64,000 bases of DNA. Source: an uncultured Gemmatimonadota bacterium. GTDB taxonomy: Bacteria; JAAXHH01. The notes below the pieces were generated by a model. It made no database searches and had not been told where the DNA came from. It saw only the letters and a program-made list of their open reading frames with translations. The position numbers and the translations under genes are program-made. The stretch covers positions 2,944,001 through 3,008,000 of the forward strand of contig OX638340.1 in the NCBI GenBank assembly GCA_951812955.1. Reading direction: 5' to 3'. Positions 10,019-53,401 of the stretch are shown here, piece after piece. The stretch's first letter is position 1; every line of letters starts with the position of its first letter.

Positions 10019-11011
10019 ATGGCAAAAAAGCGTTTGCGCATCGCCTTGATCGGATGCGGAGGCAATATGCGGGGCGCCCACGTGCCGCGCATCCAGGCCG
10101 ACGGCGGCGTCGAGCTTGCCGCGGTCGCGGATACTTCGGAAGAAGCCGCCCTGGCATTGCTGGACAGGTGGGGCAGCCCGGTGCCCTGCTACGCCGATTA
10201 CCGGGAGATGATCCAGGATCAAAAAATCGACGCGGTGATGGTCAGTTCGCCTCACGCCTTGCATTACGAGCAGGTGGACTACGCCCTGGATCAGAATCTG
10301 CACGCCCTCGTCGAGAAGCCGCTCACCATTTCATCGCGGCATACGCGCGCTCTAATCAAGAAAGCGAAGGAAGAGAACCGGATTCTCATGGTCAGCTACC
10401 AGCGCAATTTCATGGCGCCGCATGCCTACGCACGGGAGTTGATTCGAAAGGGCACGATCGGCGAAGTGCGCGGCGTCGTAGCCTACGTCACGCAGAACTG
10501 GGGCGGTACCCGCGGATGGAGACTGGACCCGGCCCTGTCCGGCGGCGGCATGTTTCTCGATACGGGCAGTCATCTCGTGGCTTCCACGCTGTGGATTACG
10601 GATCTCAAACCTCTTGAGGTGAGCGCTTTCCTGGATCTGGCGGGCAGGGACGTGGATATCAACATGGTCGTGGCGGTTCGGTTCGAGGGCGGCGCGTACG
10701 GCACGCTGAACACCTTTGGAAACGCTTCCCGGCATGACGAACGCATCGCGATCCATGGCAGCGAAGGCAGCCTGGTGTTCCACCTGCACCAGTGGCGCGT
10801 CCAATCGGTGCTCTTGAACGACCAGCCCCTGAGCATACCCAAAAGGATCCGGGAGGATACGCCGGACGCGGCGTTCTTTCGCACGATTCGAAACGGCGGG
10901 AAGGGATATGAACTCCCGCACTTCGCGCTCGCCGTATCCCAGGTCAGCGAGGCGGCATACCGTTCGGTGGAGGAAGGAAAGCCCGCCCAGGTCGCGGGAC
11001 GGACCGCCTGA
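10019..11011 (+). CDS. Gfo/Idh/MocA family NAD(P)-dependent oxidoreductase
   Basis: MAKKRLRIALIGCGGNMRGAHVPRI is a Rossmann N-terminus. Catalytic-region blocks EKPL and MVSYQRNF are present. Confidence 0.85.
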   Translation: MAKKRLRIALIGCGGNMRGAHVPRIQADGGVELAAVADTSEEAALALLDRWGSPVPCYADYREMIQDQKIDAVMVSSPHALHYEQVDYALDQNLHALVEKPLTISSRHTRALIKKAKEENRILMVSYQRNFMAPHAYARELIRKGTIGEVRGVVAYVTQNWGGTRGWRLDPALSGGGMFLDTGSHLVASTLWITDLKPLEVSAFLDLAGRDVDINMVVAVRFEGGAYGTLNTFGNASRHDERIAIHGSEGSLVFHLHQWRVQSVLLNDQPLSIPKRIREDTPDAAFFRTIRNGGKGYELPHFALAVSQVSEAAYRSVEEGKPAQVAGRTA

Positions 11012-11033
11012 GCAACGGAACCAGGAGAATCCC

Positions 11034-11825
11034 ATGAGCGAAAAGGGACGGTTGGCCGGCAAGAAGGCGGTCGTCACCGGAGCGGGACGTGGCATCGGCC
11101 AGGCCATCGCGCTGAGACTCGCACAGGAAGGCGCCCATGTCGCCGCCGTGGACATCGACCGCGACAGCGCGGAAGCGACGGCCGGCCTGATCCGGGACGG
11201 CGGAGGCGCCGCCGCAGCGTTGACGGTTGACCTGGTCCGCGTCGACCTCATCGAACCCATGATCGAAGAAGCCGTATCGACGTTGGGCAGGCTGGATATC
11301 CTGGTCAACAACGCGGGAAGGGTGGAGATCAAACCGTTTCTCGACGTAACCGAAACGGAATGGGACCAGATCATGGATCTCAATCTGAAAGGGACGTATT
11401 TCTGCATGCAGGCGGGGGCCCGCAGGATGATCCGGCAGGGGGACGGCGGTCGCATCATCAACATGTCCTCCATTTCGGGCAGGCACGGCCGGGCCGATTC
11501 GAGCGTGTACGCAGCCAGCAAGATGGGGATCATCAGCATCACGCAGTCCGCCGCGCTTGCCTTCGCGGATCACGGGATCCTGGTCAACGCACTGTGCCCG
11601 GGCGTCGTGGCCACGCCCATGTGGGACCACATCGACGAGGACCGTGCCCGCCTGTTCGGCTACGAGCGGGGAACGGCCCGTGCGCGGCTCGTGGAGAAGA
11701 TTCCCCTCAAACGAGTCGCCCAGACCGAGGAGATTGCCGCCGCGGCTGTCTTCATCGCTTCCGATGAAAACACGCTGATTACCGGTCAGGCGATTAATGT
11801 AGACGGCGGCATGGAAATGAACTGA
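11034..11825 (+). CDS. SDR family oxidoreductase (3-oxoacyl-ACP reductase/glucose dehydrogenase-like)
   Basis: TGAGRGIGQAIA glycine motif, NNAG, and a YAASK catalytic Tyr-Lys pair. AGGAGA RBS precedes the ATG at 11034. Confidence 0.88.
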   Translation: MSEKGRLAGKKAVVTGAGRGIGQAIALRLAQEGAHVAAVDIDRDSAEATAGLIRDGGGAAAALTVDLVRVDLIEPMIEEAVSTLGRLDILVNNAGRVEIKPFLDVTETEWDQIMDLNLKGTYFCMQAGARRMIRQGDGGRIINMSSISGRHGRADSSVYAASKMGIISITQSAALAFADHGILVNALCPGVVATPMWDHIDEDRARLFGYERGTARARLVEKIPLKRVAQTEEIAAAAVFIASDENTLITGQAINVDGGMEMN

Positions 11826-13758: not shown

Positions 13759-15687
13759 CTAAACGGACACCGGCGCCTCGTGACCACCGTAGCCGAGTGC
13801 TTTCACGTCCCGATGCAGCCGATCGAGCACCCTGGTCCGTACCTCTTCGAACATCTCCCGGGTCAGGAAACTCACGCCGGGCAGGTCGCCCTTGGGCTGA
13901 CCCACGAAAACGTCGGACGGCAGATCGTATTCGGACTCCGTGATCCCCTGTTTCTGTTCGAGGGAAAACCCCAGGATGTGGGCCCGGTAGGTGGCGTCCA
14001 GCACCCGCTCGGCTGAGAAGGGCACGCCGAAAACGGACTCGATGCCTTCGCTGACCTGGTCCGGCGGGGCCATGGTGAACAAACATCCGCCATGCAGGTC
14101 CTTGTTGACCATCTTCCACCCTTCCTCGGTGATGTTGTGGACCCAGTAGTCCGCCGAATCGGGCTTGCAGTCCGGGTCCATCACGTATAGCAGGAAGGTG
14201 CGCATGGACATGTGGCCGCCGGCCACGGCGAAGGGGTAGCCCGGATTGGTCTGTCCCAGATAGGCGGAGAACTCGACCCCTTTGGCATGCATCGCGAAGC
14301 CCTCGCCACCGATCTCTTCGGCAATCACCCGGACACCCTTTCCGAATAGGGGTTCGCGGCCATAGGCGATATCCTCTTTAAGTCGGCGCGCACCTTCCGC
14401 GTCCCCGAAGGTTACGCCGCCCGCAACGGTGCCGTTACCACGGGAATTGTAGTCCATCAGGAAGGAGAGCACGACGTTGGCCGATATGGTATCGAACCCC
14501 AGGTCGTCGTCCAGCCGGGCGAGTTCCAGGTTGTCATGTGGATCCAGGATGCCGAGGTTGGCGCCGGACAGTTCCATGGGCTCGAACTCGAACCGGCCGA
14601 GGTAATCTCCATGGTTCCTCCGGGCCTTGCGCCAATCGGGATCCTTGCCGCCTTCCGGGATGTCGTAGAAGTCCTGGTGGCACGTTATCTGGCAGCCGTA
14701 GCAGCTCTTGTCGATGACGATGAAATCGTCCGATTCCCGCATGGTTTCCAGGTGTACCGGAACGGCCACGTTCTCGCCGGGCGGTTCGAAGTTCCGGTAG
14801 GGCAGCACGCCGAATCCATCGAGGATCTTGCTGTTCTTGCCCGTTCCGCCCAGTCCGTTCCGGTTGTGTGGATGGCGGTAACCCCGGCTCTGCTCGCCCC
14901 GCCCGATCTCGTTGTTGATGACCTTGAGCCGGTCGTCGCCCTTTCGGTAATAGTCCGTTTCCGACCTGGCCACAATGCCGATGATGTTCTTGGAACCGAG
15001 CACCGAGCCCATGCCGAGCCGGCCCGCGAACCGCCACTTGTCTTCCCCGCTCATCAACTGTTCCTGCGTCGATCCGACAATGGCCGCGTACCAGACCGTT
15101 TTCCAGTTTTCACCGGCCGGTCCGACGACGGCGAAATGGGCGTGGTATTCCTTGTCTTCATCGTTGTACTGCTCATCCAGATAGACCATCTTGTCCCGTA
15201 CCCGCGCGCCGACAAGATGTGCCGGGGCTTCGATCAGGGAAATATAGGGGCCGTCACTGGTCTGCTTTATAACCAGGAAGCTGGGACGATCCGCGCGGCC
15301 GGTGAGTATCAGGTCGCCGATGCCGGTATAGGAGAACTTGCGTCCGAAACTCCCGCTCATGGCCGACCAGACGGGCATGGGCTTTCCCGCCCGGGTACGT
15401 TTCAACGGGGAAAAACCCGAGAAATACGCCCGCAGCCCGGTCATGAACTGCGTGCCGGTGAAGCAGCCGGTGTTGATGACCAGCGGGGCATCCGGCGCGA
15501 AGGGATCGCTCACTTCATAGCCCGAGAGGATCTTGAACGACCGGCCGATGCCCCCGAGGAAGTCCATGTCGTCCTTGACCCGAAGGTCGTCGCTTCGGAC
15601 CTCGCGACCGGCGGACAGGTCGTATTCGATGCGGGTGTAGGTATAGTCGGTCACGTCTCCCGGCGTGCCGTTTCCAGGTTTCAGCAC
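13759..15687 (-). CDS. Aldehyde:ferredoxin oxidoreductase family (tungsten/molybdopterin AOR)
   Basis: 642 aa with N-terminal AOR_N and C-terminal AOR blocks (GxGTGKN.., EFS..). Confidence 0.75.
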   Translation of the reverse strand: MLKPGNGTPGDVTDYTYTRIEYDLSAGREVRSDDLRVKDDMDFLGGIGRSFKILSGYEVSDPFAPDAPLVINTGCFTGTQFMTGLRAYFSGFSPLKRTRAGKPMPVWSAMSGSFGRKFSYTGIGDLILTGRADRPSFLVIKQTSDGPYISLIEAPAHLVGARVRDKMVYLDEQYNDEDKEYHAHFAVVGPAGENWKTVWYAAIVGSTQEQLMSGEDKWRFAGRLGMGSVLGSKNIIGIVARSETDYYRKGDDRLKVINNEIGRGEQSRGYRHPHNRNGLGGTGKNSKILDGFGVLPYRNFEPPGENVAVPVHLETMRESDDFIVIDKSCYGCQITCHQDFYDIPEGGKDPDWRKARRNHGDYLGRFEFEPMELSGANLGILDPHDNLELARLDDDLGFDTISANVVLSFLMDYNSRGNGTVAGGVTFGDAEGARRLKEDIAYGREPLFGKGVRVIAEEIGGEGFAMHAKGVEFSAYLGQTNPGYPFAVAGGHMSMRTFLLYVMDPDCKPDSADYWVHNITEEGWKMVNKDLHGGCLFTMAPPDQVSEGIESVFGVPFSAERVLDATYRAHILGFSLEQKQGITESEYDLPSDVFVGQPKGDLPGVSFLTREMFEEVRTRVLDRLHRDVKALGYGGHEAPVSV

Positions 15688-17170: not shown

Positions 17171-18664
17171 ATGTATCATCCCGTTTCCCGCGGAGCCCCC
17201 GTGAACGTCATCTGCATCTGCCTGGACACCTTTCGCGCCGACATCATCGGCCCGGGCAGGAAGTTCAGCCACGCGCACACGCCCAATCTCGACGCTTTCC
17301 ACGGCGGCAGCATCCGGTTCAACCGAGCGTATGGCGAAGGGCAGCCCACGCTGCAGGTCCGCCGCGCGCTGTTCACCGGGATGCGCAGTTTCCCCTGGCG
17401 TTACAACTTCGACCGGCGCGGACACTGGCATCATGCTCCAGGCTGGCACAAGATTCCCCCGGAGCAGGACACGATCGCCGAGGTGCTGCTGGAACGAGGG
17501 TACCTGACGGCCCTCATCGCCGACACCTATCATATGTTCAAGCCCACCATGAACTTTGCCCGGGGATTCGCGCACCTGGATTTTGTGCGGGGGCAGGAAT
17601 CGGACAACTGGAAAAGCGGTGACCCCCGGCTGGTGGAGGCGCAGCTCGCCCGGCACGTCCGGTCGCCCGTGGACATGGCCCGGCACGTGGGACTTGTGAA
17701 CTACCTGCTCAACCAGCGACACCGGAGGGAAAAGGACGACTACCAGTGCGCCCGGGTATTCAATTCGGCCTGCGAGTGGCTGGCCGACAACCATACGGCG
17801 GGGCCCTTCTTCCTGTGGGTAGACAGCTTCGATCCCCACGAGCCATGGGATCCGCCGCCGGAATATGCGGACCGGTACTGCGAGCATGACGGCCTCGATT
17901 TCATCCAGCCCGGCCCCGCTTACAGTAGAGGCGGGCCAGGCGGGGGCGGCCCGGGCGGACCATCGGAAGCGGAACTCAGGCGCATCGAGGCGCTGTACCT
18001 CGGCGAGGTCACCCTCGTGGACGAGTATGTGGGCCGGTTGCTGAACGCGGCCGCGGACCTGAACCTGCTCGATGAGACCATGGTCGTGATTCTGTCGGAC
18101 CACGGCACACAACTGCTGGACCAGGGGAAGTTCGGCAAGGGGCCTGATGAACTGCATCCCTTCAATACCCAGCTCAACCTCATGATGCGGGTACCTGGCG
18201 GGCCCGCGGACCTCGACGTGGACGCCTTCGTGCAAAACCACGACCTCATGCCCACGCTGCTCGGACGGCTCGGGATGCGGGCGGAGTGGACGGACGGGGA
18301 GGACCTGTGGCCGTTGGTCACGGGCGAAAAGGCATCGGTTCGCGACCGCGTGGTGACCGGATGGGCGGGCTTTGTCACGGGGAACGCCGTGGGCAGGGCC
18401 AGCGTCCGAGACGATCGCTGGAACTACTGCACGGCGGTGGGGTACGAGGACGAGGCTGGCGATGAACTCTTCGACCTGGAGGCTGATCCGGAAGAGCGGC
18501 GAAACGTGGCCGGTCTCCATCCAGAGATCGTCGCGGATCGCCGTACCGACGTGGAGGCCGTGATCGGCCAGCCTCTCCCCGGACAGATGGTGGAGGTGTG
18601 CGATGCGGCCCCCGGGCCCATGTCGCACTGGCTGGGACAGTTGCTGAAGAAGAGACAGGGTTGA
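17171..18664 (+). CDS. Sulfatase family protein (alkaline-phosphatase superfamily)
   Basis: ICICLDTFRAD N-terminal motif (C-x-x-x-R-like) and the general arylsulfatase fold. The larger antisense ORF 17168..18850 has arbitrary composition and is a shadow. Confidence 0.7.
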   Translation: MYHPVSRGAPVNVICICLDTFRADIIGPGRKFSHAHTPNLDAFHGGSIRFNRAYGEGQPTLQVRRALFTGMRSFPWRYNFDRRGHWHHAPGWHKIPPEQDTIAEVLLERGYLTALIADTYHMFKPTMNFARGFAHLDFVRGQESDNWKSGDPRLVEAQLARHVRSPVDMARHVGLVNYLLNQRHRREKDDYQCARVFNSACEWLADNHTAGPFFLWVDSFDPHEPWDPPPEYADRYCEHDGLDFIQPGPAYSRGGPGGGGPGGPSEAELRRIEALYLGEVTLVDEYVGRLLNAAADLNLLDETMVVILSDHGTQLLDQGKFGKGPDELHPFNTQLNLMMRVPGGPADLDVDAFVQNHDLMPTLLGRLGMRAEWTDGEDLWPLVTGEKASVRDRVVTGWAGFVTGNAVGRASVRDDRWNYCTAVGYEDEAGDELFDLEADPEERRNVAGLHPEIVADRRTDVEAVIGQPLPGQMVEVCDAAPGPMSHWLGQLLKKRQG

Positions 18665-18815
18665 ATCGTGGGTGGGCGGCGTGTAGGCGGCGTGTAAGCC
18701 GATCGCGCCCAACGCCGAAGCCATGCGCGCACCGAACCGCGCATAAACGATGGTCTGAAATAGCGGTCTGAAATAGCCATGAAGAAGAGTATGCAATCCA
18801 AACCTTTTATTGAGT

Positions 18816-18829
18816 TGTACAATTGTACA
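18816..18829. promoter_or_regulatory. Perfect 14-bp palindrome TGTACAATTGTACA (candidate operator) ~35 nt upstream of SDR gene 18865
   Basis: Exact reverse-complement symmetry in an AT-rich patch within a GC-rich genome. It is preceded by a perfect 13-bp tandem repeat (GGTCTGAAATAGC)x2 at 18751-18776. Confidence 0.4.
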
Positions 18830-18864
18830 TCTGATGTGGTCTTCATGCAACAGGAGTATTCAGC

Positions 18865-34180: not shown

Positions 34181-34196
34181 GAACGGGCGGCCGCCC

Positions 34197-34333
34197 CGCG
34201 CTCGACCGGTGGGTACGCAGCAACACTTACGCGCGCAAGTCCGGGCAGTGCGCGGCCGCACCGGTCCGGTCGGTACGCTGTACCTCCGCGCTCGACAGGT
34301 GGGTACGAAGCCACTCTTTGCCGCGCAGGTCCG
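34197..34333. repeat. Two imperfect ~48-bp direct repeats (period ~90 bp) in the convergent intergenic region
   Basis: CGCGCTCGACCGGTGGGTACGCAGCAACACTTACGCGCGCAAGTCCGG versus CGCGCTCGACAGGTGGGTACGAAGCCACTCTTTGCCGCGCAGGTCCG. Confidence 0.6.
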
Positions 34334-34358: not shown

Positions 34359-34937
34359 TTACGAATCCTCCGCGTCCCGCCCAATCCCCAGGGCGTCCGC
34401 AACGCGGTTGATGTAGTTGAACCACGACGCGATCAATGTGATCTGAAGGATGGCGACGTCGTCGAATCCTACGGACCGTAATCCATCGATATCGGTTTTC
34501 TGAATTCTCGTGGCATCCTCGGTGAGCCGGATGACGAAATCCAGCATCGCCCGATCCTGCTTTTCCAGCGGCGCACTGTCGTAATCGTACTTGAGTGATT
34601 CAACCAGCTCGCTGTCCAACGTGACCCGACGCAGAAACTCTGCGTGCGAGTCAATTCAGTAAACGCACCGGTTAACCGATGAGACCACGGTCGAGATCAT
34701 CTCGTGCTGGCGGCGGTTCAATGGAAGGTCGGGCGACATCAGCACGCCGAAGGTGGCGAAGGCGTGATGCAGCGCGTCCGGGATCAGCGAATGGGATGCC
34801 ACGATCCCGGAGGTGCCGTCTCCTGTGGGGTGCACCGGCGTGTCGTACTCCGCGGGATAGAGCGATCGCTGCGCCTCGAGGGCGGCGAGCAGCCGGTCAT
34901 CCCCTTCTGTCGCGGATATCGTCTTGATCCAGGCCAT
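34359..34937 (-). CDS. AhpD-like / carboxymuconolactone-decarboxylase-family peroxidase-related protein with in-frame UGA (putative selenocysteine) at 34653-34655
   Basis: ORFs 34656..34937 and 34359..34619 lie in the same frame, separated only by TGA. Joined, they read ...VSSVNRCVY-[TGA][11 protein letters not shown].., which matches the CMD-family motif N-x-C-x-Y-C-x-x-x-H with TGA at the second Cys. Confidence 0.6.
34620..34649 (-). promoter_or_regulatory. Candidate bacterial SECIS hairpin immediately 3' of the UGA
   Basis: RNA sequence GACUCG-C-ACGCAG-AGUUU-CUGCGU-CGGGUC forms a 12-bp stem with one bulge and an apical loop containing GU. It starts 4 nt after the UGA, with the loop G at about +18. 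Confidence 0.45.
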
Positions 34938-36279
34938 GATCTTCTCCTGTATTGCTCGTTTGCGTGGATTGATTCCGAAACACGAGATAGTACACCGGAA
35001 TTCCCAGTGCGGTCACCCCCACGCCGATCATGGCCTGCAGCGGACTGTTGCCGAGCAGCAACAGCAGCACCACAGCAGCAAGGAGAAGAAACACGATCGG
35101 GGTGAAGGGATAAAGCGGGACCCGGTACGGCGGCATGTCCGGCCGTTTTCTGCGTATCACGAACATGCCCGCCACGGTCAGGGCGATAAACAGCACGGCG
35201 ACAAAGATGAAGTAATTCAGTATTTGCGTGAAGGTTCCCAGCCACACCAGCAGGGAGGCCAGTCCCCCCTGGATGGAGATCGCGAGATAGGGCGTGCCGA
35301 ATGTGGGATGGACCGTGCTGGCGAAACGGAGGAAGACGCCGTCCGTGGCCATGGCGTAGTATACCCTTGGCGCCATCAACAACAACCCGGTGAGACTGCC
35401 GACGATGGAGAGGATGACCACGGAGGAGAATAGGATGCCCCCGCTTCTTCCGAACAGCACCTCGCCGGCCTGGGCCGCGAAAGTCTCGTCGCTGGTGACC
35501 TGGGAGACCGGCACGAGATACATGAAGACGGCGCTCGTGGAGATATAGGTCAACGCGACAATAACCACGGCCAGTAGCAACGCCCTGGGCAGGGTCTTGG
35601 CCGGATCGCGGATTTCGCCGGCCACCTTGTTCAGATCCCACCAGCCGGCGAAGGCGAAGAATGCGCCCACGATGCCGCCCGCGAGCGCGCCGAACAGCGG
35701 TCCAGAGTCCGCGGGCCGTGCCACGAAGGGGGTGAAATTCGACCAGTCGCCGAGGCCCAGGCCGAAGCCCAGGATGGATATGACGGCGAGTACACCGACC
35801 TTGAAAATCGTCAGCAGGACGATGATCAACGCGCCGATGCGCACGCCGTAGATGTTCACTCCGGTGAGGACGATCAACACGGCGATGGCGAACATCTTCA
35901 TCGCGGCCGGCTCCATCGGATAGATGTGGGCCGCGTAACTCGCCATGCCGGTCGCCAGGGTCGCCGTGATTCCCGGATCCAGCACCATAAGCGACATCCA
36001 GCCGTACAGGAAGGCGGTCCGGGTGCCGTAAGCCTCGCGAAGATAGACGTATCCGCCACCCGCGTGGGGAAACCGGGAAGCCAGTTCTCCAAAGCAAAGC
36101 GATCCGCTCAGGGCCATCCCTGCCATCGCCAGCCAGATGACGAGCAGTAGCAGGGGGGATCCCAAAGACTTGGCCATCCCGGCGGGTACCAGGAATATGC
36201 CCACGGCGATCATGCCGCTGATCACCATCGCCGTGGTCGGCCAGATACCCAGTTGTCGACGCAGGTTACCCGAGGTCAT
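34897..36279 (-). CDS. APC superfamily amino acid/polyamine permease
   Basis: 460 aa, 12 TM segments, N-terminal AMVISGMIAVGIF signature. Confidence 0.85.
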   Translation of the reverse strand: MTSGNLRRQLGIWPTTAMVISGMIAVGIFLVPAGMAKSLGSPLLLLVIWLAMAGMALSGSLCFGELASRFPHAGGGYVYLREAYGTRTAFLYGWMSLMVLDPGITATLATGMASYAAHIYPMEPAAMKMFAIAVLIVLTGVNIYGVRIGALIIVLLTIFKVGVLAVISILGFGLGLGDWSNFTPFVARPADSGPLFGALAGGIVGAFFAFAGWWDLNKVAGEIRDPAKTLPRALLLAVVIVALTYISTSAVFMYLVPVSQVTSDETFAAQAGEVLFGRSGGILFSSVVILSIVGSLTGLLLMAPRVYYAMATDGVFLRFASTVHPTFGTPYLAISIQGGLASLLVWLGTFTQILNYFIFVAVLFIALTVAGMFVIRRKRPDMPPYRVPLYPFTPIVFLLLAAVVLLLLLGNSPLQAMIGVGVTALGIPVYYLVFRNQSTQTSNTGEDHGLDQDDIRDRRG

Positions 36280-41584: not shown

Positions 41585-42508
41585 CTATATGCCGAGTTCG
41601 TCCAGGCTCTCCTGGTACACCGAGGCGGAAGCATGCAGCGCCGTGCGCTCGTCGTCCGACAACTCCAGTTCGATCACTTCTTCTATACCCGCGCTACCCA
41701 GCTTGACGGGCACCCCGACACAGACGTCCTGCAGTCCGTATTCCCCTTGCAGCATTACCGACGCGGGCAGCACGCGATTCTTGCCTTTCAGGACGGATTC
41801 CACCATCTGGACAACGGAGGCCGCGGGGGCGTAGTAGGCGCTGCCCGTCTTGAGGTAGTTGACGATCTCAGCGCCGCCGTCGCGGGTACGTTGCACGATG
41901 CGGTCGATGGCCTCACGAGGCAAAAGTTCGGTGATGGGAATACCGGAGACCGTCGTGTAACGGGGAATGGGGACCATGGTGTCGCCGTGTCCACCCAGAA
42001 TGATCGCCTGGGTATCTTCCATGGATACGCCCAGTTCCATGGCGACAAAGCTGCGGTATCGGGCGCAGTCGAGTACACCGGCCTGCCCGTAAACGCGTTT
42101 TCGCCCGAATCCCGATACCTTGAGGGCGATATAGGTCATGACGTCCAGCGGGTTGCTGACCATCAGGATCTGGGAATCCGGCGCGTACTTTACAATGTTT
42201 TCGGTGACCGACGTGATGATTTCCGCGTTCTTCTTCAGCAGGTCGAGCCGGTCCATGCCCGGCTTGCGGGCCAGACCGGCGGTGACCACCACGAGCGCGG
42301 CGTCTTCCAGGGCTGCGAAATCGTTGGATCCTTCTATCGCCGAATCATATCCCAGTACGGGTCCGGCTTCCATCATGTCCAGTCCCTTGCCTTGCGGGAT
42401 CCCGTCGACGACGTCGATGAGGGCGATATCGCCCAGTTCTTTCTGCGCGGCGTAAAGCGCCGCGGTCGCCCCCACGTTCCCCGCCCCGACAATGCCGATC
42501 TTTACCAT
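41585..42508 (-). CDS. mdh: Malate dehydrogenase (LDH-like MDH)
   Basis: KIGIVGAGNVGAT Rossmann motif, the substrate-specificity Arg, and GGHGDTMVP. Confidence 0.92.
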   Translation of the reverse strand: MVKIGIVGAGNVGATAALYAAQKELGDIALIDVVDGIPQGKGLDMMEAGPVLGYDSAIEGSNDFAALEDAALVVVTAGLARKPGMDRLDLLKKNAEIITSVTENIVKYAPDSQILMVSNPLDVMTYIALKVSGFGRKRVYGQAGVLDCARYRSFVAMELGVSMEDTQAIILGGHGDTMVPIPRYTTVSGIPITELLPREAIDRIVQRTRDGGAEIVNYLKTGSAYYAPAASVVQMVESVLKGKNRVLPASVMLQGEYGLQDVCVGVPVKLGSAGIEEVIELELSDDERTALHASASVYQESLDELGI

Positions 42509-42635
42509 TTGATCCTCCGTGGAATTACGATGTACCGGTCCTCGTCCAACCCGCTAGTGATGAAGAACCTTGCCAATTGCCGCATACTCGTGCCGGTCAC
42601 TCCCGGCTTTCCGTCCCGAGCGTCCCTTTTCCCGT

Positions 42636-43829
42636 TCATCGCGCCGTATTCATGTCGATCAGCAGCGACTCGCCGATAGCGTGATACCGGTCCGCTGCTT
42701 CCATCAGGTCCCGTGCCGTGTTGTGCGGGAAGGAGAACACCTCCACGCGCGGACCCAGTTCCTTGAGCAACTGGATCAGGGATACGAAATCACCATCGCC
42801 GCTGGCCAGGATGACGACGTCGACCTTTTCGGCCATTCTGATCATGTCGATGGCCATCTCCATGTCCCAGTCTCCCTTCGCGGAGCCGTCGCTGCGCCTG
42901 CGGAGGTCTTTCCGCTTAACCTGGTAACTGAACTGTTCCAGCATGGTAACGAACCCGCTCTGGTCCACTTCCGGAGTCTGAATCACGTATGCGTTCGCGC
43001 AAATCAGCCGCCTGTCACCCACGGCCGCCTGCAGGAGTTTCTCAAAATCCAGCCTGGCGGATATCCCGTAGTGCTGCCGCGCGGCGTACCACATGTTCTG
43101 CACGTCGATGAAGATGGCCACTCTCTCATCGATGGGGTGTCCGCGAACAACCTGCCCGCCGGGATCCGATTCGTGACGCAGGTTACTGAGTTGATCCACC
43201 TCCTGGCGGACGGCCTTTAAGGCTTTAAGGACGTCCATGCAGTGCGTCTCGATGTGTTTTACGGTGTCCCGAATAGCCGATCCCAGGTCCCGCGCCGCCG
43301 GGGAGGAGGGTACTCCCGCGGCCTCACCGTCCAGAACCGAATCACCCCGCAGGTACGGGAACGCCGTTTCTTCCGATACTCCAGACCGGGCGGGATCCGC
43401 CGGGGTCCGGTTCAGGAGTTCAATGGCTGGAGCGTGCACGGCCTCCCGCTCATCCAGCAGCATGGCCGTCGCCAGCCGCCCGCACTCCCGGCTGTAGGCG
43501 CTGGTGCGATCGCCCAGCAGCGAACCGATGCGCCCGGGGGACGTCGCGCCGACCCTCGAAATCTCCCTGGCGCTGGATTGAACCAGGGTACTGACGACCT
43601 GGGCAGCCGTGACCTCACGCTCGAAACAGTCCCTGGCAAGCTGAGTTGCCAGCACATGGGTCTCCGTGGACTCCAGGTCCTGGCCGTCGCTGGCCAGGCC
43701 GCAGATGTGGCAGAGTTTGGCGATCAAACTACGGTCGAGGGCGAGTTCCAGAAGCCGTGCCAGTCCGCTCTCGTCGACCCTTCTGAAGAGATGCCGGTAG
43801 TCCGGTAGTGTGTTGTGCCGATTCTCCAT
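42636..43829 (-). CDS. NYN (LabA-like/PIN-like) domain protein with ~230-aa uncharacterised N-terminal domain
   Basis: C-terminal VAIFIDVQNMWY ... DVVILASGDGDF are NYN ribonuclease-like motifs. Confidence 0.6.
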   Translation of the reverse strand: MENRHNTLPDYRHLFRRVDESGLARLLELALDRSLIAKLCHICGLASDGQDLESTETHVLATQLARDCFEREVTAAQVVSTLVQSSAREISRVGATSPGRIGSLLGDRTSAYSRECGRLATAMLLDEREAVHAPAIELLNRTPADPARSGVSEETAFPYLRGDSVLDGEAAGVPSSPAARDLGSAIRDTVKHIETHCMDVLKALKAVRQEVDQLSNLRHESDPGGQVVRGHPIDERVAIFIDVQNMWYAARQHYGISARLDFEKLLQAAVGDRRLICANAYVIQTPEVDQSGFVTMLEQFSYQVKRKDLRRRSDGSAKGDWDMEMAIDMIRMAEKVDVVILASGDGDFVSLIQLLKELGPRVEVFSFPHNTARDLMEAADRYHAIGESLLIDMNTAR

Positions 43830-47098: not shown

Positions 47099-50000
47099 TC
47101 AGTTGAAAACGAACTCGGTCCACAGCCCGCCGCCTCGCCGAATCCGTTTCTGCCGGGTGATTACATTCAGCGTATTCGTAAACTCGAGCGTGACGCCGCC
47201 GCGGATGTACCTGCTGAACCGATAGTCCGTCGTGACCGAGAACCGGTTCTGATTCTGTCCGTTGCTGGGTTGGAAATCGCCGGCTATCCGCGATATAAGC
47301 GTCTCGTTGGTATTCCGGGTGTATTGCAGCCGGGCGTTAATGTCCCCGCTCGTCCGCTTCCCGAAGATCCGGATACCGGACCTGAGCCGGTAGTCCACCG
47401 CGACAGTGAGTGACCTGTTCTGCTGTTTCTGGTCGGTCGCGTTCCGTCCGAACTCGGTCAATCCGTCTAATGTTGTAAAGTTGCCTCGAATCACCACGCC
47501 CGCGTTCAGATCGAAGACGAAGCCGATCAGAGGAGACAGGGAAGTCGTGGTCGTCCGGGTGATACCGGCTTCACCAGGGTCCGTATCTCCCGCAGACCCC
47601 TGCGCGACCGCGGGGGCCACCTGCCCCAGGTCGGTGTTCTTCCCCTTGCGTCTCGAGTACCCGCTGGACAGTTCGATGCGGCGGAAGCTCCGGCCGAAGT
47701 CGCCCATGCTCCTGAGATTGGGACTCCACCGCAGGTTTACTTCAGGCCATGTGGTGTTATTCTGCTTCCGGTTCAGATTTGAGGACCGGTTATGGGTCGA
47801 CACCCACGTGGGCCGGATGGACAGGGTCGCGCCGCGTAACCGGATTCCCGTTCCCAGGTTGAAGGAAGACCGGTTCGCTTCCGACTCCTGGTTACGCTGG
47901 ATGCCGGTAACTCCGCCACCGGACCCCAGGGTATCGAACAGTACCGAGAAACTATCCGACAGCCCCATGCGTTCCCGCAAGGTCGGGCGGGATACCGCGT
48001 TGAAGAAGTTCTGGTTGCGGCTGATCGTGTAGTTCAGTGTGACCGGCGTGAAGTTACTCAAGACTGCGGCAAGCCGGTCCGACACGTTTCGTCGGAACCA
48101 TCCTGCGTCTTCTGGACTCGATCGTCGAGAAGATTCCCCGAGGACGTTCGATACCATTCTAGCCAAATTGACGTTCGTTCGCACGCCCTGCTGGTTGCTG
48201 AACGTGATGGTCCGCGCGCTTGGAGAAGCTCCGACAAGTTGCAACTGTGGATTCCGGTTCTCCGCGTAAGACGTGGTAAAGTTGTAGGACGGCCTGAACC
48301 AGGTCGTGATACCGGGACGATAGTCGACACCCAGGTTCTGGCGGTAGCTGGTTTCTGGACCGAATTCCAGCTTGGTAAAAGATACGGTGGAATCGGATTT
48401 CATGTCGTTGGAAACCGCGAGGTTGTAATTCATCCTCAAGGATCCGAAAGGTTCCATGATTGCCCGGATATTTCGGTTTAGATACCTGATGAAACGTTCG
48501 CCGCGGTCCGTACTTGCCGCCTCCGTTTCACCGGTGTTTCCGGCCACGACGGACTGCCTCGCCCTGTTGAGGTAGATCCGCCTGTCGCGATTTACTTCCG
48601 AGAACAACTCCAGTCGTACGGGCAGCGGGTTGAAAGTCAGTCCTGAAATAGACTCCGGCAATGGCATCCATCTTAGAATCGGCCACTGGATCTTAGAGCG
48701 CGGGGTCAGGTTGTAATGCAGTCGGGCCCGGTAGGAGCCGGACGTATCGATCCTGGAGACCGAGTGACGGAAATAACTGGTCGACGTGAAATCGAACCGG
48801 AATCGCTCCAGGGTCCAGGCGACGAAGGGATTCCTTGAACCGATACGCTTGGAGAAAGAAGCCGAAAACGAGCGGTCGTTGTTCTCCGTGCGCTGCGCTT
48901 CACGCTGTTCCTGGTTCAACAGGACGATATCGGACCCTACCTGCAACCGCGGCAGCCTCAGGTCGTTCTTCCAGCGGAGACGGAGTGGAATGGACAGTCC
49001 CCAGTCTTCCGGCAGCATGTTTCCCAGATTCAACAGGGAGGAAAAGTTTATCAAAGTGGATCTGCTCCCTGATTCTTCACCGCCAATCCTGCGGAAGTGA
49101 CTGCCCACGCTTCTGACGGTTCCGAACACTGATAAAACGTCGGCGAGATCGGCGTCGAACTTCAGTCGGCCGGCAAGTCCCCGGTCGCGCCTGACATCGC
49201 CCGCCCTCAGTTCGTCCAACCAGAGCTCACCTCCCACCAGAACCTGGTCGTAAGGATTGTAAATCCCCACTGTGATATGGCGAACACGGGCCAGGGCGGG
49301 TGAACCCAGAACCCTGTACTGCCTGTTTCCCTCCAGTTCGACTATGGCCAGCGTAAGCCCCTCATTTCGAGGACCATCCTTGAATCGCACGGGACGTGAA
49401 ATCCCGTCGCTCAGCGTAACCGCATAGGTCGTATCCGTTGTCGTCACCGTCCTCCGCGCTGTTTCCGTTTCGCTCTTGAGGACCGTCAGATCGTCGAAAA
49501 CGACCCTGAGATGGTTCGCTTCGTCCCATCCGGGCAAGACACGCGTCCGATATTCGTAATAGTCGAATTCTCCGCTTCCGAATCGAATAAAAAACTCGGG
49601 CGATCGGCCTGGTTCGAAGTTGTCCGAGCCGTGAATGTAAAGCCGCAGCGTGTTGTAGAGCGTATAGTCCTGATCGGAAAACAGCGTACGATAAGCCTGT
49701 GCGCTGTGGTGCGGCTGCAGGTTGGTATAGGTGATGATCAGGGACTGTTCCTTGTTCTGGAGGCCGGTCACCCGGTCGTACTCGATGATCGCACCGGGAG
49801 GCGACGTATATTCACCCGGATTGTCGTATGTGTTCTTCACGGCGACATCGAAAGTCTCTCCGGCGGCGGACAACGCGGAAGCAGGAACCGGATTGCCGGT
49901 GGAATCGGTTATCGCCCCGGTAAAGTCTTCCTGCCATTGGTTGCCGACGATATTGATGGAGGCGATACGCGTTTTTACCGGCTCGTCCACCTCCGTGATC

Positions 50001-53000
50001 CAAAGCCTGACCATTTCGATCCGCTCGAATGTCGGCATGCCCACCGAACCGGCGTAAGCGCGGTTCGCCAGGCCGGCAGCGCCTTCGGCCGTTTCTACAT
50101 CCGCACCGTCCTGGCGGTCCATGCCGTCCAACGACGGGTCCACACCGGCCGTCGCACCGAGGATTTCGGTGTCCAGCGGTATGCGGTACATGCGCCAGCT
50201 GTCCGGATTGCCCCAGTTGGAGCGATCCAGGTCGCCGCCGGCTACGAGCACCGTGTCATCGTGGTCCGGACTCAGATTCACGGCGAATTCGAAATAGTCG
50301 TTTTGTAAGTCCAGAAAGCCGGAGTAATCGAGATCTTCGGTATCGGGCCGACGGTTCTGATCCGGATCGTTGGCATTCACTTCCGGTCCGTTGATTTTGC
50401 TGTAGTCGACCTGGTCGACCGGCACGGAGCCACCCTTCGTACCTTTGAAGTGGAAGTTGTCCCCGTGTGGATCGGGGTTGCTCACCGGATCGTAACCGGC
50501 CTCCTCTTCGTCCCTCAGACCGTCCATCCCGATGTCTTCTTCCGGTTCCAGGAGGTTGTTGCCGAATCCGCCACTCCGGTCGTCTTCCGTATCCAGACTG
50601 TCGTTACCGTTGACATCCTCGCTGATTGCCCCGAGGTCGATATGCAGTTCGCCGCGATTCCCGTTCACCCATATCTCGATGAACCGGCTGCGCGTCTGGT
50701 CCACGTTGGCCCCGGAGAGCGGATGCATCAACCCGGCCCACCTGTTCAGCACGTCGCCCTGGCCGTTTTCCCGGCCGGGCGCGCTGAAGGTCGAGTCCGC
50801 AGACAAGCCGCCCCAGCGAAGGTCGGGTTCCGTGGGATCGTATTCCATGATCAGCACGTGCTGCAACTGGTCGCGGCCCGTGACCTCGCGGGTGGGGTAA
50901 ATCTGGCGGACATCGACCTGTTCGAGGGGATTGTACCAGATCATCCGGCCCCGCTGTTGGTGTTCGTATCGATCGGGTGGGCTGGCCGGCCGCCAGCCGC
51001 TCCGGCGCACGCCCAGGTCTGTTTCCTCCTTGCTTCCTTCGAAATCGTCGATAAACCCGTCGCCCAGGATATTGGGGTTGGGAACGCTCTGAGCCAGTTC
51101 GGCCTCGATGATCAACGAGGACGATTCGTCCGCCAGGTCCGCGGGGGAGATGAAATCCACGAAGGAAGTCAGAAAGTCAGGTTCGAACGCCAGCCGCGTA
51201 TCGATCCCCCACATCATGTACCGTCCGGTTTCACGGCCGATCCGGGACTTCTGCTCCAGGGACTTGTCGGACCGGTATAGAAATGTGCCTTTAATCCAGG
51301 ACTGTTCGCTGAACTGGTATTCACCCTGAAATCCCATCAGGGTGTTCGACACAGGCTTGAAGAACGGGGCAAACTGGAACTGGACGGTCACGTCCGCATC
51401 CGGGGTCAGAGCCTCCTCGTTCGTGAAACGGATCTGCCCGACTTCGTAGAGAATGATGTAATCGGTTCCCCGCTGCAGTTGCTGGCCGTTCAATCGCACG
51501 ATTTCACTCCCCTCGATGATATTGGTCCGCCCGAGGGAGTACTGGGACAACTGGTTACGGTATTCGACTTCAAGGAAGTACTTGTTCAGCCTGCTGTGCT
51601 GGCTGAAGATCTGTTCGCTCGAAAGATTATAGAACCCGGGCGTTTCATCGGGAAGGCCTTCGCCCTGCGTATTCGGATAGGCCAGTTGGCCGGCGGATGT
51701 TACGGTCAGGGCGGGCGCGAAGGGATACTGGTCCGGGAAAATCAGTTCCCCGCGTTCGAAATTGAACAACGCATAGTCGATGTCGACGATCCGGTCGGGC
51801 TCGGAACCGGGGTCCACCCCCCTCCGGTCGAGCCCCAGCAACTGGATGAAGGGCGTCCCGTTCTCGTCGACCTCACTGTGCTCGCCCTCGGACTGCAACT
51901 GGTAGATTCTCAATTCGAAATTGTTCGGATCGATGTCCGTCTGGCCGAGGTAATACACATTCCGCCACTCGTACTGCCAGGTGTCCCACTGGGCGGGATC
52001 GTCCGGGGCGGCGGGAGGGCGCTCCTGCTGCCGCTTGAGCAGGCGCAGCAGCGGGACGTCGCCTTCCAGTCGGCCGTACTTTTTGACTTCTCCGTTCTGG
52101 TTCACGGTCTCGTAGTATACTCCGAGCATGTCGTCTTCTTGCAAGGGCGTGTTCAACGCGATGTAGCCGAATTGCTGGTTTACGTAGAATTCGTCGGATT
52201 CCAGGTACCTGAACTTCCCTTCCACGAATTCACCCGCCTCGGAACCCTGGATGAGCACATCCTCCGAGTCGTACACGGGGGGATCCGGATAGGCATTGGC
52301 ATTGACCAGCTTGGCCTGGTTGGTCAGGGTGAGCCGTCCCGACACGTAGACCTGGATGACACGCACCGAGTCATCGGGCGCGACGCGGGACCCGTTTACG
52401 TCCCTGCGCGAGAAATCGCGGCGGTACTGCTCATCAATGAAATAGTAGGTCCTGCGCCTGAAGTCGAGGTCCCGGATCACCCGCTGAGACCCTTTGGTCC
52501 CGGCCTGGAACGTGGCGGATTCTCCTTCTCCCTTCTCCTGGCTGGCGATCGCGGTCAGGTGGAAGCTGCCGAGTTGGCCCGTCATTTTGACTCCAAACAA
52601 TCCGGTGTGCTGCTGCGTATAGCCCGTGAACTCCGTGTTCTTCAGATCGAGAGAAACGTTTCCAGCCTCGAAACTCTTCAGGATGCCGTTCCCATCCCGG
52701 CCGTCGTCGTAAACGTCCTGGTACCGAATGGCAAGGTTGTTGTCGAGGTCGGTGAACGCTTCGCTGTTCTGCTTGATGTTCACCTCGACCTTCTGGCCTA
52801 TGTTCCCGGAAACGGTAAACTCCTGGTTCTGCTTCATGGAAATGTTCGGTGCGCGAGAGAACCGGTTTGTCGCCGTACTCGCGCTGCCTTCCGTCCATTC
52901 GCTGGCCATGTCCATCTCGATGCGCTGGTTTCCGAGAATACGAATAACGGGCGTGCCGCCGCCCAGAAAAGTAGGCAGGTTCACCGGCAGATCGAGGGTC

Positions 53001-53401
53001 AGAAGGCCTTCCTGGCTCAGTCGGGTTTCGGTGTCGAAGACGTAGGACAGCACGGACGTTCGCCACAGTTTTTTGAATTGAGCCGCACTGCGAAGTCGGT
53101 AATATTGGTCAAAAGAGAGGACCAGGGGCACGCGGCGGCCAAGCCCCCGTTCTGCGTCTATGAAAGCCAGTAGCAGGAGGTCGGGATAGACGACGGTCCG
53201 GCCGCCCAAAGGCAACGGCCGGTCGGAGAGGGTACGCAGTGCCGGTCTGTTTTGCCCGCGGGCGATTTCGTCGACCTCATCGAAAGCAACGACGTGCAGG
53301 CGTGCGCTTTCGAGCCGGATCGCCGGGCCTTCCGCCAGTGCGGAGAAGGTCCACAGGGATATCAGCACGTGGCTGAAGACAATCGGACAAATGCGTTTCA
53401 T
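47099..53401 (-). CDS. sprA: Giant outer-membrane protein, SprA-like (T9SS translocon / gliding-motility cell-surface protein SprA family)
   Basis: 2100 aa with a signal peptide. Long beta-rich sequence of SprA character, ending in an aromatic beta-barrel C-terminus (..WTEFVFN). Plus-strand ORFs in this span are shadows. Confidence 0.6.
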   Translation of the reverse strand: MKRICPIVFSHVLISLWTFSALAEGPAIRLESARLHVVAFDEVDEIARGQNRPALRTLSDRPLPLGGRTVVYPDLLLLAFIDAERGLGRRVPLVLSFDQYYRLRSAAQFKKLWRTSVLSYVFDTETRLSQEGLLTLDLPVNLPTFLGGGTPVIRILGNQRIEMDMASEWTEGSASTATNRFSRAPNISMKQNQEFTVSGNIGQKVEVNIKQNSEAFTDLDNNLAIRYQDVYDDGRDGNGILKSFEAGNVSLDLKNTEFTGYTQQHTGLFGVKMTGQLGSFHLTAIASQEKGEGESATFQAGTKGSQRVIRDLDFRRRTYYFIDEQYRRDFSRRDVNGSRVAPDDSVRVIQVYVSGRLTLTNQAKLVNANAYPDPPVYDSEDVLIQGSEAGEFVEGKFRYLESDEFYVNQQFGYIALNTPLQEDDMLGVYYETVNQNGEVKKYGRLEGDVPLLRLLKRQQERPPAAPDDPAQWDTWQYEWRNVYYLGQTDIDPNNFELRIYQLQSEGEHSEVDENGTPFIQLLGLDRRGVDPGSEPDRIVDIDYALFNFERGELIFPDQYPFAPALTVTSAGQLAYPNTQGEGLPDETPGFYNLSSEQIFSQHSRLNKYFLEVEYRNQLSQYSLGRTNIIEGSEIVRLNGQQLQRGTDYIILYEVGQIRFTNEEALTPDADVTVQFQFAPFFKPVSNTLMGFQGEYQFSEQSWIKGTFLYRSDKSLEQKSRIGRETGRYMMWGIDTRLAFEPDFLTSFVDFISPADLADESSSLIIEAELAQSVPNPNILGDGFIDDFEGSKEETDLGVRRSGWRPASPPDRYEHQQRGRMIWYNPLEQVDVRQIYPTREVTGRDQLQHVLIMEYDPTEPDLRWGGLSADSTFSAPGRENGQGDVLNRWAGLMHPLSGANVDQTRSRFIEIWVNGNRGELHIDLGAISEDVNGNDSLDTEDDRSGGFGNNLLEPEEDIGMDGLRDEEEAGYDPVSNPDPHGDNFHFKGTKGGSVPVDQVDYSKINGPEVNANDPDQNRRPDTEDLDYSGFLDLQNDYFEFAVNLSPDHDDTVLVAGGDLDRSNWGNPDSWRMYRIPLDTEILGATAGVDPSLDGMDRQDGADVETAEGAAGLANRAYAGSVGMPTFERIEMVRLWITEVDEPVKTRIASINIVGNQWQEDFTGAITDSTGNPVPASALSAAGETFDVAVKNTYDNPGEYTSPPGAIIEYDRVTGLQNKEQSLIITYTNLQPHHSAQAYRTLFSDQDYTLYNTLRLYIHGSDNFEPGRSPEFFIRFGSGEFDYYEYRTRVLPGWDEANHLRVVFDDLTVLKSETETARRTVTTTDTTYAVTLSDGISRPVRFKDGPRNEGLTLAIVELEGNRQYRVLGSPALARVRHITVGIYNPYDQVLVGGELWLDELRAGDVRRDRGLAGRLKFDADLADVLSVFGTVRSVGSHFRRIGGEESGSRSTLINFSSLLNLGNMLPEDWGLSIPLRLRWKNDLRLPRLQVGSDIVLLNQEQREAQRTENNDRSFSASFSKRIGSRNPFVAWTLERFRFDFTSTSYFRHSVSRIDTSGSYRARLHYNLTPRSKIQWPILRWMPLPESISGLTFNPLPVRLELFSEVNRDRRIYLNRARQSVVAGNTGETEAASTDRGERFIRYLNRNIRAIMEPFGSLRMNYNLAVSNDMKSDSTVSFTKLEFGPETSYRQNLGVDYRPGITTWFRPSYNFTTSYAENRNPQLQLVGASPSARTITFSNQQGVRTNVNLARMVSNVLGESSRRSSPEDAGWFRRNVSDRLAAVLSNFTPVTLNYTISRNQNFFNAVSRPTLRERMGLSDSFSVLFDTLGSGGGVTGIQRNQESEANRSSFNLGTGIRLRGATLSIRPTWVSTHNRSSNLNRKQNNTTWPEVNLRWSPNLRSMGDFGRSFRRIELSSGYSRRKGKNTDLGQVAPAVAQGSAGDTDPGEAGITRTTTTSLSPLIGFVFDLNAGVVIRGNFTTLDGLTEFGRNATDQKQQNRSLTVAVDYRLRSGIRIFGKRTSGDINARLQYTRNTNETLISRIAGDFQPSNGQNQNRFSVTTDYRFSRYIRGGVTLEFTNTLNVITRQKRIRRGGGLWTEFVFN

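Follow-up and report, generated by a model that had tools for sequence, protein, structure and literature searches.

Does the in-frame UGA in a small redox-enzyme gene of this bacterium end the protein, or does it encode selenocysteine (Sec)? On the minus strand of the window, by which we mean the whole 64-kb stretch of DNA that was analysed, an open reading frame of 93 aa (34937..34656) is followed in the same frame by a continuation that runs to a TAA, and a TGA alone lies between the two. Minus-strand translation bears out the sequence-only reading on this point, and its gene limits of 34359-34937 are correct; the TGA coordinates that it gave (34653-34655), however, belong to the next codon, ATT (Ile), a slip of 3 nt from the true TGA at 34658..34656. 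Read through, the sequence around the UGA is ...S-V-N-R-C91-V-Y-U94-I-D-S-H98-A-E-F..., in which the UGA stands at the second Cys position of a C-x-x-C-x3-H motif. The in-frame "stop" almost certainly encodes Sec. More fully, we hold with high confidence that the locus is one intact AhpD-like gene whose UGA codon 94 is decoded as Sec with a SECIS hairpin; the integrity of the gene, its family membership, the conserved UGA, the purifying selection on the codons that follow and the nucleotide constraint on the hairpin are all directly supported. Table 1 collects the features.

Table 1. Positions in the window of the probable selenoprotein gene, its parts and its upstream neighbour
Feature	Position	Strand	Basis or remarks
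Probable AhpD-like (TIGR01926) selenoprotein gene	34937..34359	minus	ATG at 34937, UGA codon 94, TAA 34361..34359, 192 aa
UGA codon, very probably read as selenocysteine U94	34658..34656	minus	TGA in 161/161 related copies; Cys in Cys-forms
Redox motif C91-V-Y-U94-I-D-S-H98 (CxxU...H)	34644..34667	minus	translation; aligned homologs and structures
Conserved core of the putative SECIS, ACGCAGA-GUU-UCUGCGU, 17 nt	34629..34645	minus	nt 14-30 with the U of UGA as nt 1; spacer of 10 nt
Extended predicted hairpin: 7-bp lower stem, bulged C, core	34622..34653	minus	RNAfold; lower stem lineage-specific
APC-family amino-acid permease gene, upstream	34897..36279	minus	AA_permease_2, 196.8 bits

Membership of the family was established by profile searches, which were run with U written as C in the read-through protein. 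The NCBIfam model TIGR01926, "peroxidase-related enzyme", gives 112.5 bits against a curated cutoff of 81.8, with residues 50-186 on profile positions 37-174 of 178, and the CMD/AhpD-family, TIGR01926-like product of about 190 aa that had been proposed is thus confirmed, with a length of 192 aa. The protein also passes Pfam CMD (PF02627; 33.2 bits, cutoff 23) and the core-domain model TIGR00778 (39.3 bits, cutoff 27.8). With TIGR00777, the model for AhpD sensu stricto, it scores 22.5 bits, far below the cutoff of 191.95, so that "AhpD-like" is the proper label and "AhpD" would be wrong. Of 824 relatives obtained in a protein search, the best 120 are about 188 aa long and align at 61-74% identity. 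Because these full-length homologs cover 97-98% of the read-through sequence, the two halves are collinear and represent a single-gene family. Collinearity of the downstream ORF had been named as a point on which the selenoprotein reading could fail, and about 120 full-length homologs span both halves.

The same alignments show what the UGA replaces. C91 is invariant in all 121 aligned proteins, and the His is conserved and matches the His of solved CxxC...H homologs. Among the best 120 of the 824 proteins, the U column holds W in 75, C in 43, L in one and S in one. The nearest solved relatives (2pfx, 3c1l, 2oyo, 2prr and 6K40; profile matches with E-values from 1e-28 to 2e-21) are Cys-forms, and the profile aligns U94 with the second Cys of CxxC in 2pfx, 3c1l and 2oyo. 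The expectation that the TGA would fall where the second redox Cys belongs is therefore borne out both by the 43 Cys-forms and by these three structures.

Conservation of the codon itself was followed in 160 related loci (L005-L164), of which 80 came from metagenomes and 80 from species-representative genomes, all fetched regardless of the codon that they carry. TGA occupies the Sec codon in every one of their 161 gene copies. The TGA-bearing MAGs are labelled as Acidobacteriota (Blastocatellia, Pyrinomonadaceae and Terriglobia), Gemmatimonadota, Ca. Latescibacterota, Planctomycetales, Verrucomicrobiae and KSB1, and single bins are labelled Cytophagia and Deferribacteres. In one of these (L144, labelled Deferribacteres), the full-length Sec-form with its UGA at about 10280 is accompanied, some 3.2 kb downstream, by a 3' partial duplicate that starts about 8 codons before a second UGA (about 13477) and keeps the UGA, the SECIS and the C-terminal half. 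The 7.4-kb contig L085, from "Gemmatimonadetes bacterium APA_bin_41", is about 96% identical in nucleotides to the window. Eight further MAGs are syntenic with the window at about 83% identity; five of the eight bear the title Ca. Latescibacterota, and three of the eight are complete chromosomes (3.8-4.0 Mb).

The frame beyond the UGA has the marks of a coding sequence. Over 97 downstream codons, 160 of 161 unique TGA-bearing sequences are free of any other premature stop, and in 3000 random pairs of these 161 sequences the synonymous share of differing codons is 60% downstream of the UGA as against 69% upstream. In all nine close relatives of the window gene, with 86-97% amino-acid identity and 4-17% nucleotide difference, the TGA and the SECIS core are preserved exactly, and the frame beyond stays open. 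Past the UGA, L085 differs from the window by 6 synonymous and 3 non-synonymous codons, and the eight more distant of the close relatives differ by 15-18 synonymous and 10-15 non-synonymous codons. These codon differences show that purifying selection acts at the protein level beyond the UGA, in the family at large as well as in this lineage.

This result bears on a rival account, in which the gene is a relic: the Sec machinery has been lost, translation stops at the UGA, so that a fragment of 93 aa is made, and the second half of the gene decays. It would sit well with what the surroundings of the gene yield. ARAGORN found no tRNA gene in the 64-kb window, and the 30 largest window ORFs, searched with Pfam, contain no domain of SelA, SelB or SelD, in keeping with the earlier remark that selA, selB, selD and tRNA-Sec are absent from the window; Rfam at the gathering threshold gave no match over its whole length. 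A scan of the window for a second UGA-interrupted gene gave no convincing candidate, and no other selenoprotein gene was seen there. ARAGORN likewise detected no tRNA-Sec in 168 fetched loci (1.65 Mb), in which rough tblastn probes with E. coli SelD and SelA had no match, but as these loci sample about 0.5% of each genome, absence of the machinery from them is uninformative on whole genomes. Against a relic stand the nine relatives, all of which keep the TGA, the SECIS core and the open frame in spite of their divergence, and the fact that most of the codon differences in them are synonymous. Selection on the full-length product among close relatives thus makes a decaying gene very unlikely.

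If the UGA is decoded as Sec, a SECIS should lie just behind it. RNAfold predicts a hairpin in which 14 bp, interrupted by one bulged C, lead to a GUU triloop; it begins at the 3rd nt after the UGA, or at the 4th if the terminal U-A pair is dropped. For the 71-nt region the minimum free energy is -25 kcal/mol, which corresponds to z = -2.2 and is matched by 4 of 200 shuffles; the predicted fold alone is modestly unusual, and its significance comes from comparative data. The sequence-only reading had described a 12-bp hairpin 4 nt after the UGA with G and U in its loop. The hairpin and the G/U loop stand, but the predicted stem has 14 bp and only its upper 7-bp part and the triloop are conserved: in other lineages, the lower-stem positions 7-36, 9-34 and 12-31 mostly do not pair. 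The conserved core consists of a 7-bp stem (nt 14-20/24-30) and the loop G21-U22-U23, and is invariant or nearly so in 150-161 unique sequences. The pattern TGA-N10-core occurs once in the window and not at all in shuffled sequences.

Covariation, as a sign of selection for base pairing, does not exceed that of shuffles. In the upper stem, across 150 aligned homologs, four of the seven pairs are invariant and the others change rarely and on one side only; a stem so nearly fixed shows no compensatory change. Since covariation is lacking and the lower stem is lineage-specific, freezing of synonymous sites was used instead, with controls from within the gene and from Cys-forms. Codons +4 to +9 of the Sec-forms (H-A-E-F-L-R; 161 unique sequences) are CAC in 100%, GCA in 97%, GAG in 100%, TTT in 99%, CTG in 100% and CGT in 95%. 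Elsewhere in the same gene, Phe is TTC in 69-81% of cases, Leu is CTG in 43-61%, Arg is CGT in 2-19% and Ala is GCA in 4-12%. Six distinct Cys-forms with the same E-F-L-R, a small control at this number, use CAT/CAC, GCG/GCC/CTC/GTC, GAG/GAA, TTT/TTC, CTG/CTC and CGG/CGT/CGC/AGG at these positions. They form just 4-6 of the 7 core pairs, five of them at -2.1 to -5.6 kcal/mol and one (L165) at -10.0, whereas Sec-forms fold at -9.6 +/- 1.1 kcal/mol with all 7 pairs in 152 of 161. The hairpin is thus frozen at synonymous sites in Sec-forms and free in Cys-forms, as is expected of a bacterial SECIS, and it is through this freezing that a constraint at the RNA level beyond the needs of the protein was found. 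In bSECISearch-type criteria, a bacterial SECIS is a stem-loop within the ORF 3' of the UGA, with its apical loop about 16-37 nt away and a G (GU) in the loop; the window hairpin agrees with this description and with an E. coli-like geometry.

Counted with the His codon, the core spans 18 nt, and these agree nucleotide for nucleotide in more than 150 sequences, whose MAGs carry the labels of at least six phyla. Beyond the dual coding constraint, this identity could come from a recent inter-phylum horizontal spread of the Sec gene, or from an unusually sequence-specific SelB-SECIS recognition common to soil and symbiont lineages. The invariant 17-nt element provides a simple and highly specific DNA signature (TGA-N10-ACGCAGAGTTTCTGCGT) for members of the Sec clade.

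Could the TGA be a lesion instead, that is, a Cys codon (TGC or TGT) or a TGG that was mutated in a pseudogene or misread in sequencing? Natural single-base neighbours of TGA do exist at this codon: one of the 75 W residues is encoded by a genuine TGG (L003, 954-956), and the single L by TTA (L004, 2597-2599). In both, however, the ORF is intact and the 18-nt SECIS core is unaltered, and with the core retained they look recently derived from TGA; each may be an allele that lost Sec not long ago, an inactive copy or an error of assembly. The SECIS-like core is, moreover, specific to TGA-forms, and the TGA recurs in 161 of 161 independently assembled copies. With such conservation, a lesion or a sequencing error is effectively refuted, and we give it hardly any credence.

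Two of the Cys-forms deserve separate mention. L165 (TGC; 1282-1332) has a near-complete hairpin, with 6 of 7 pairs at -10.0 kcal/mol, and the same upstream permease as the window gene; it may be a recent Sec-to-Cys conversion. In L170, a gene of the T4_deiodinase family (Pfam PF00837; 2490-2567) lies about 900 nt downstream of the Cys-form AhpD-like gene, and deiodinase-like proteins are listed among the prokaryotic selenoprotein families in selenoprotein surveys.

The many database proteins with Trp at the U column call for an explanation. These W-form proteins carry the local context of the query, W-I-E/D-S-H-A-E-F. In one case (P0001) the codon was checked in the DNA of both of its contigs (L001 and L002) and is TGA, and the locus translated under table 11 does not give the database protein, so that the "W" there is an artefact of gene calling. 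Our inference is that it stems from the choice of code 4 on short metagenome contigs; the 75 W proteins, to which P0001 belongs, are mostly from JGI and from contigs of about 1 kb. An artefact of this kind at the Sec column hides the selenoprotein, places a Trp in the active site that is not there and can mislead alignments and the deduction of active sites. A genuine alternative code, with UGA as a sense codon for Trp (table 4) or Gly (table 25), would account for the 75 database W residues, but it has next to no probability, as the W codon of P0001 is TGA in a setting that points to the gene caller, homologs carry Cys and not Trp at the U column, and TGA ends 12 of 25 Pfam-supported genes in a window of 60% G+C, so that the standard code applies and TGA is otherwise a normal stop. 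The code-4 reading was accordingly rejected, on the DNA-level check and on stop-codon usage in the window.

With family, U/Cys alignment, conserved TGA, downstream selection, frozen hairpin and literature all in its favour, the original suggestion of a probable selenoprotein is well supported, and a mechanism can be proposed. In bacteria, Sec is inserted at a UGA by SelB, which, bound to GTP and Sec-tRNA(Sec), attaches to the SECIS hairpin. For this gene we infer a dependence on SelB, Sec rather than another residue at codon 94, a catalytic role for it and a substrate. As the gene is translated, the 17-nt stem-loop, whose first nucleotide is the 11th after the UGA, would serve as the SECIS; it would bind SelB-GTP-Sec-tRNA(Sec) and bring it to the UGA, where it would compete with release factor 2. 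The resulting protein would have the centre C91-x-x-U94-x3-H98, with Sec in place of the second Cys of CxxC. In AhpD of M. tuberculosis, whose motif is Cys130-x-x-Cys133...His137, the nucleophile is Cys133, four residues before His137, and U94 of the window protein would stand at the position of this nucleophilic second Cys. By analogy, the attack would fall to Sec94, which stands four residues before His98, and Cys91 would resolve the intermediate to give a selenenylsulfide. The enzyme would then cycle between selenol/thiol and selenenylsulfide, and would either reduce peroxide directly or re-reduce a partner peroxidase.

The neighbourhood offers a hint about the substrate. The 3' end of the upstream permease gene overlaps the start of the selenoprotein gene by 41 nt (34897-34937); in L004 and L165 the corresponding overlap has the usual length of 4 nt (ATGA). 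In 43 of 134 related loci, the gene directly upstream, in the same orientation, codes for a permease homolog, and the arrangement is also found beside the Cys-forms in L165 and L169. The permease is likely an operon partner of the selenoprotein gene, and the association suggests co-expression. As it recurs in about a third of the loci, with Sec- and Cys-forms alike, it hints at an enzyme that acts on an imported (seleno/thio) amino-acid-type substrate and not in generic peroxide defence. The joint reading, in which the core is conserved beyond its dual coding constraint, through inter-phylum spread or sequence-specific SelB-SECIS recognition, and in which the substrate is linked to the permease, seems to us rather unlikely as a whole. 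Scans for promoter and terminator consensus sequences around the gene found nothing.

Other features of the window are recorded here in passing. Between the selenoprotein gene and a convergent cyclase-family gene, at 34196-34333 on the plus strand, lie two copies of a 48-nt direct repeat (83% identical, spaced at 90 nt), with a third partial copy of 23 nt and a 15-nt inverted repeat. A 21-nt core of the repeat occurs within the window only at 34196-34333 (0.03 expected); L085, at 96% identity, has a diverged version, and the repeat is absent from more distant relatives. A gene of the aldehyde:ferredoxin oxidoreductase family (AFOR_N and AFOR_C) at 13762-15687 on the minus strand is notable in a putative sponge symbiont, aldehyde:ferredoxin oxidoreductase being a tungsto/molybdopterin enzyme typical of anaerobes. 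Four long ORFs have no Pfam match at E <= 1e-4, namely 17171-18850 (minus), 10355-11542 (minus), 364-1545 (plus) and 41633-42676 (plus), of 560, 396, 394 and 348 aa, respectively, and there is an ORF of 2100 aa at 47099-53401 (minus). Some of the long window ORFs may be spurious frames in a sequence of 60% G+C.

What does the locus add to what is already known? The family has a long record. An "AhpD-like protein" (COG2128, CxxU) was among the new selenoprotein families from the Sargasso Sea, with 27 sequences (Zhang et al. 2005; PMC1088965), and in the GOS data "AhpD-like 1" was the fourth most abundant selenoprotein family, with 299 sequences and 902 Cys homologs (Zhang & Gladyshev 2008; PMC2398784), which bears out the earlier remark that metagenomic surveys had reported AhpD-like selenoproteins. 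In 2006, an AhpD-like selenoprotein was noted in two sequenced genomes, and the Acidobacteria were already listed as containing selenoproteins (PMC1794560). Reviews of 2022 and 2026 list "AhpD-like protein, COG2128 (YciW) / TIGR01926, CxxU" (PMC9312934, PMC13188914). The locus is a further member of this well-known family and agrees with it in every respect that could be tested; as both family and motif (CxxU) have been on record since 2005, no new principle follows from it. The additions are modest: a SECIS core that does not vary between phyla, the artefactual Trp of public protein sets, and the TGG and TTA derivatives found in nature. The locus also implies the use of Sec by a sponge/coral-associated lineage. 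We found nothing relevant in the literature on Sec in Latescibacterota, and in that on AhpD-like selenoproteins no discussion of the sponge/coral lineage or of the permease arrangement. For annotation, the gene should be called as a single selenoprotein of 192 aa and not as a 93-aa fragment with an orphan ORF.

Comparison with known systems places the gene more exactly. It shares with M. tuberculosis AhpD (TIGR00777) the CMD/AhpD core domain and the C-x-x-C/U-x3-H motif with the same spacing, but is no orthologue of it and has no ahpC neighbour. Two related AhpD/YciW-type (seleno)protein families with CxxU, NF041238 AhpD_rel_CFYUT and NF053654 GroundWater_YciW, do not include it either (57.7 against a cutoff of 175 and 27.5 against 310, respectively). 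The AhpD-like protein DR_1765 of D. radiodurans (PDB 6K40) and the structural-genomics entries 2pfx, 3c1l, 2oyo and 2prr resemble it by a significant profile match and an aligned CxxC...H, but they are Cys-forms, and none of these solved structures contains Sec. A deletion mutant of DR_1765 is sensitive to H2O2, and complementation is reduced when both CxxC cysteines are mutated (PMC8945050). As to the hairpin, the minimal SECIS of E. coli is a 17-nt upper stem-loop (nt 15-31) at 11 nt from the UGA, with G23 and U24 in the loop (PMC8659212). The window element is like that of E. coli fdhF in being a 17-nt stem-loop inside the ORF, in its spacer (10 nt here, 11 nt in fdhF) and in the G-U that opens the loop (here G21/U22); it differs in having a perfect 7-bp stem and a GUU triloop where fdhF has a bulged U in the upper stem, and its sequence is unrelated. 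The closest likeness is to the AhpD-like selenoprotein family itself, which is widespread in environmental bacteria and has many Cys homologs: a TIGR01926 score above the cutoff, a CxxU motif, a single Sec and a SECIS directly downstream of the UGA. Nothing essential sets the window gene apart from that family, and its particular features are its place in a sponge/coral-associated lineage labelled Latescibacterota or Gemmatimonadetes and its operon-like arrangement with an amino-acid permease.
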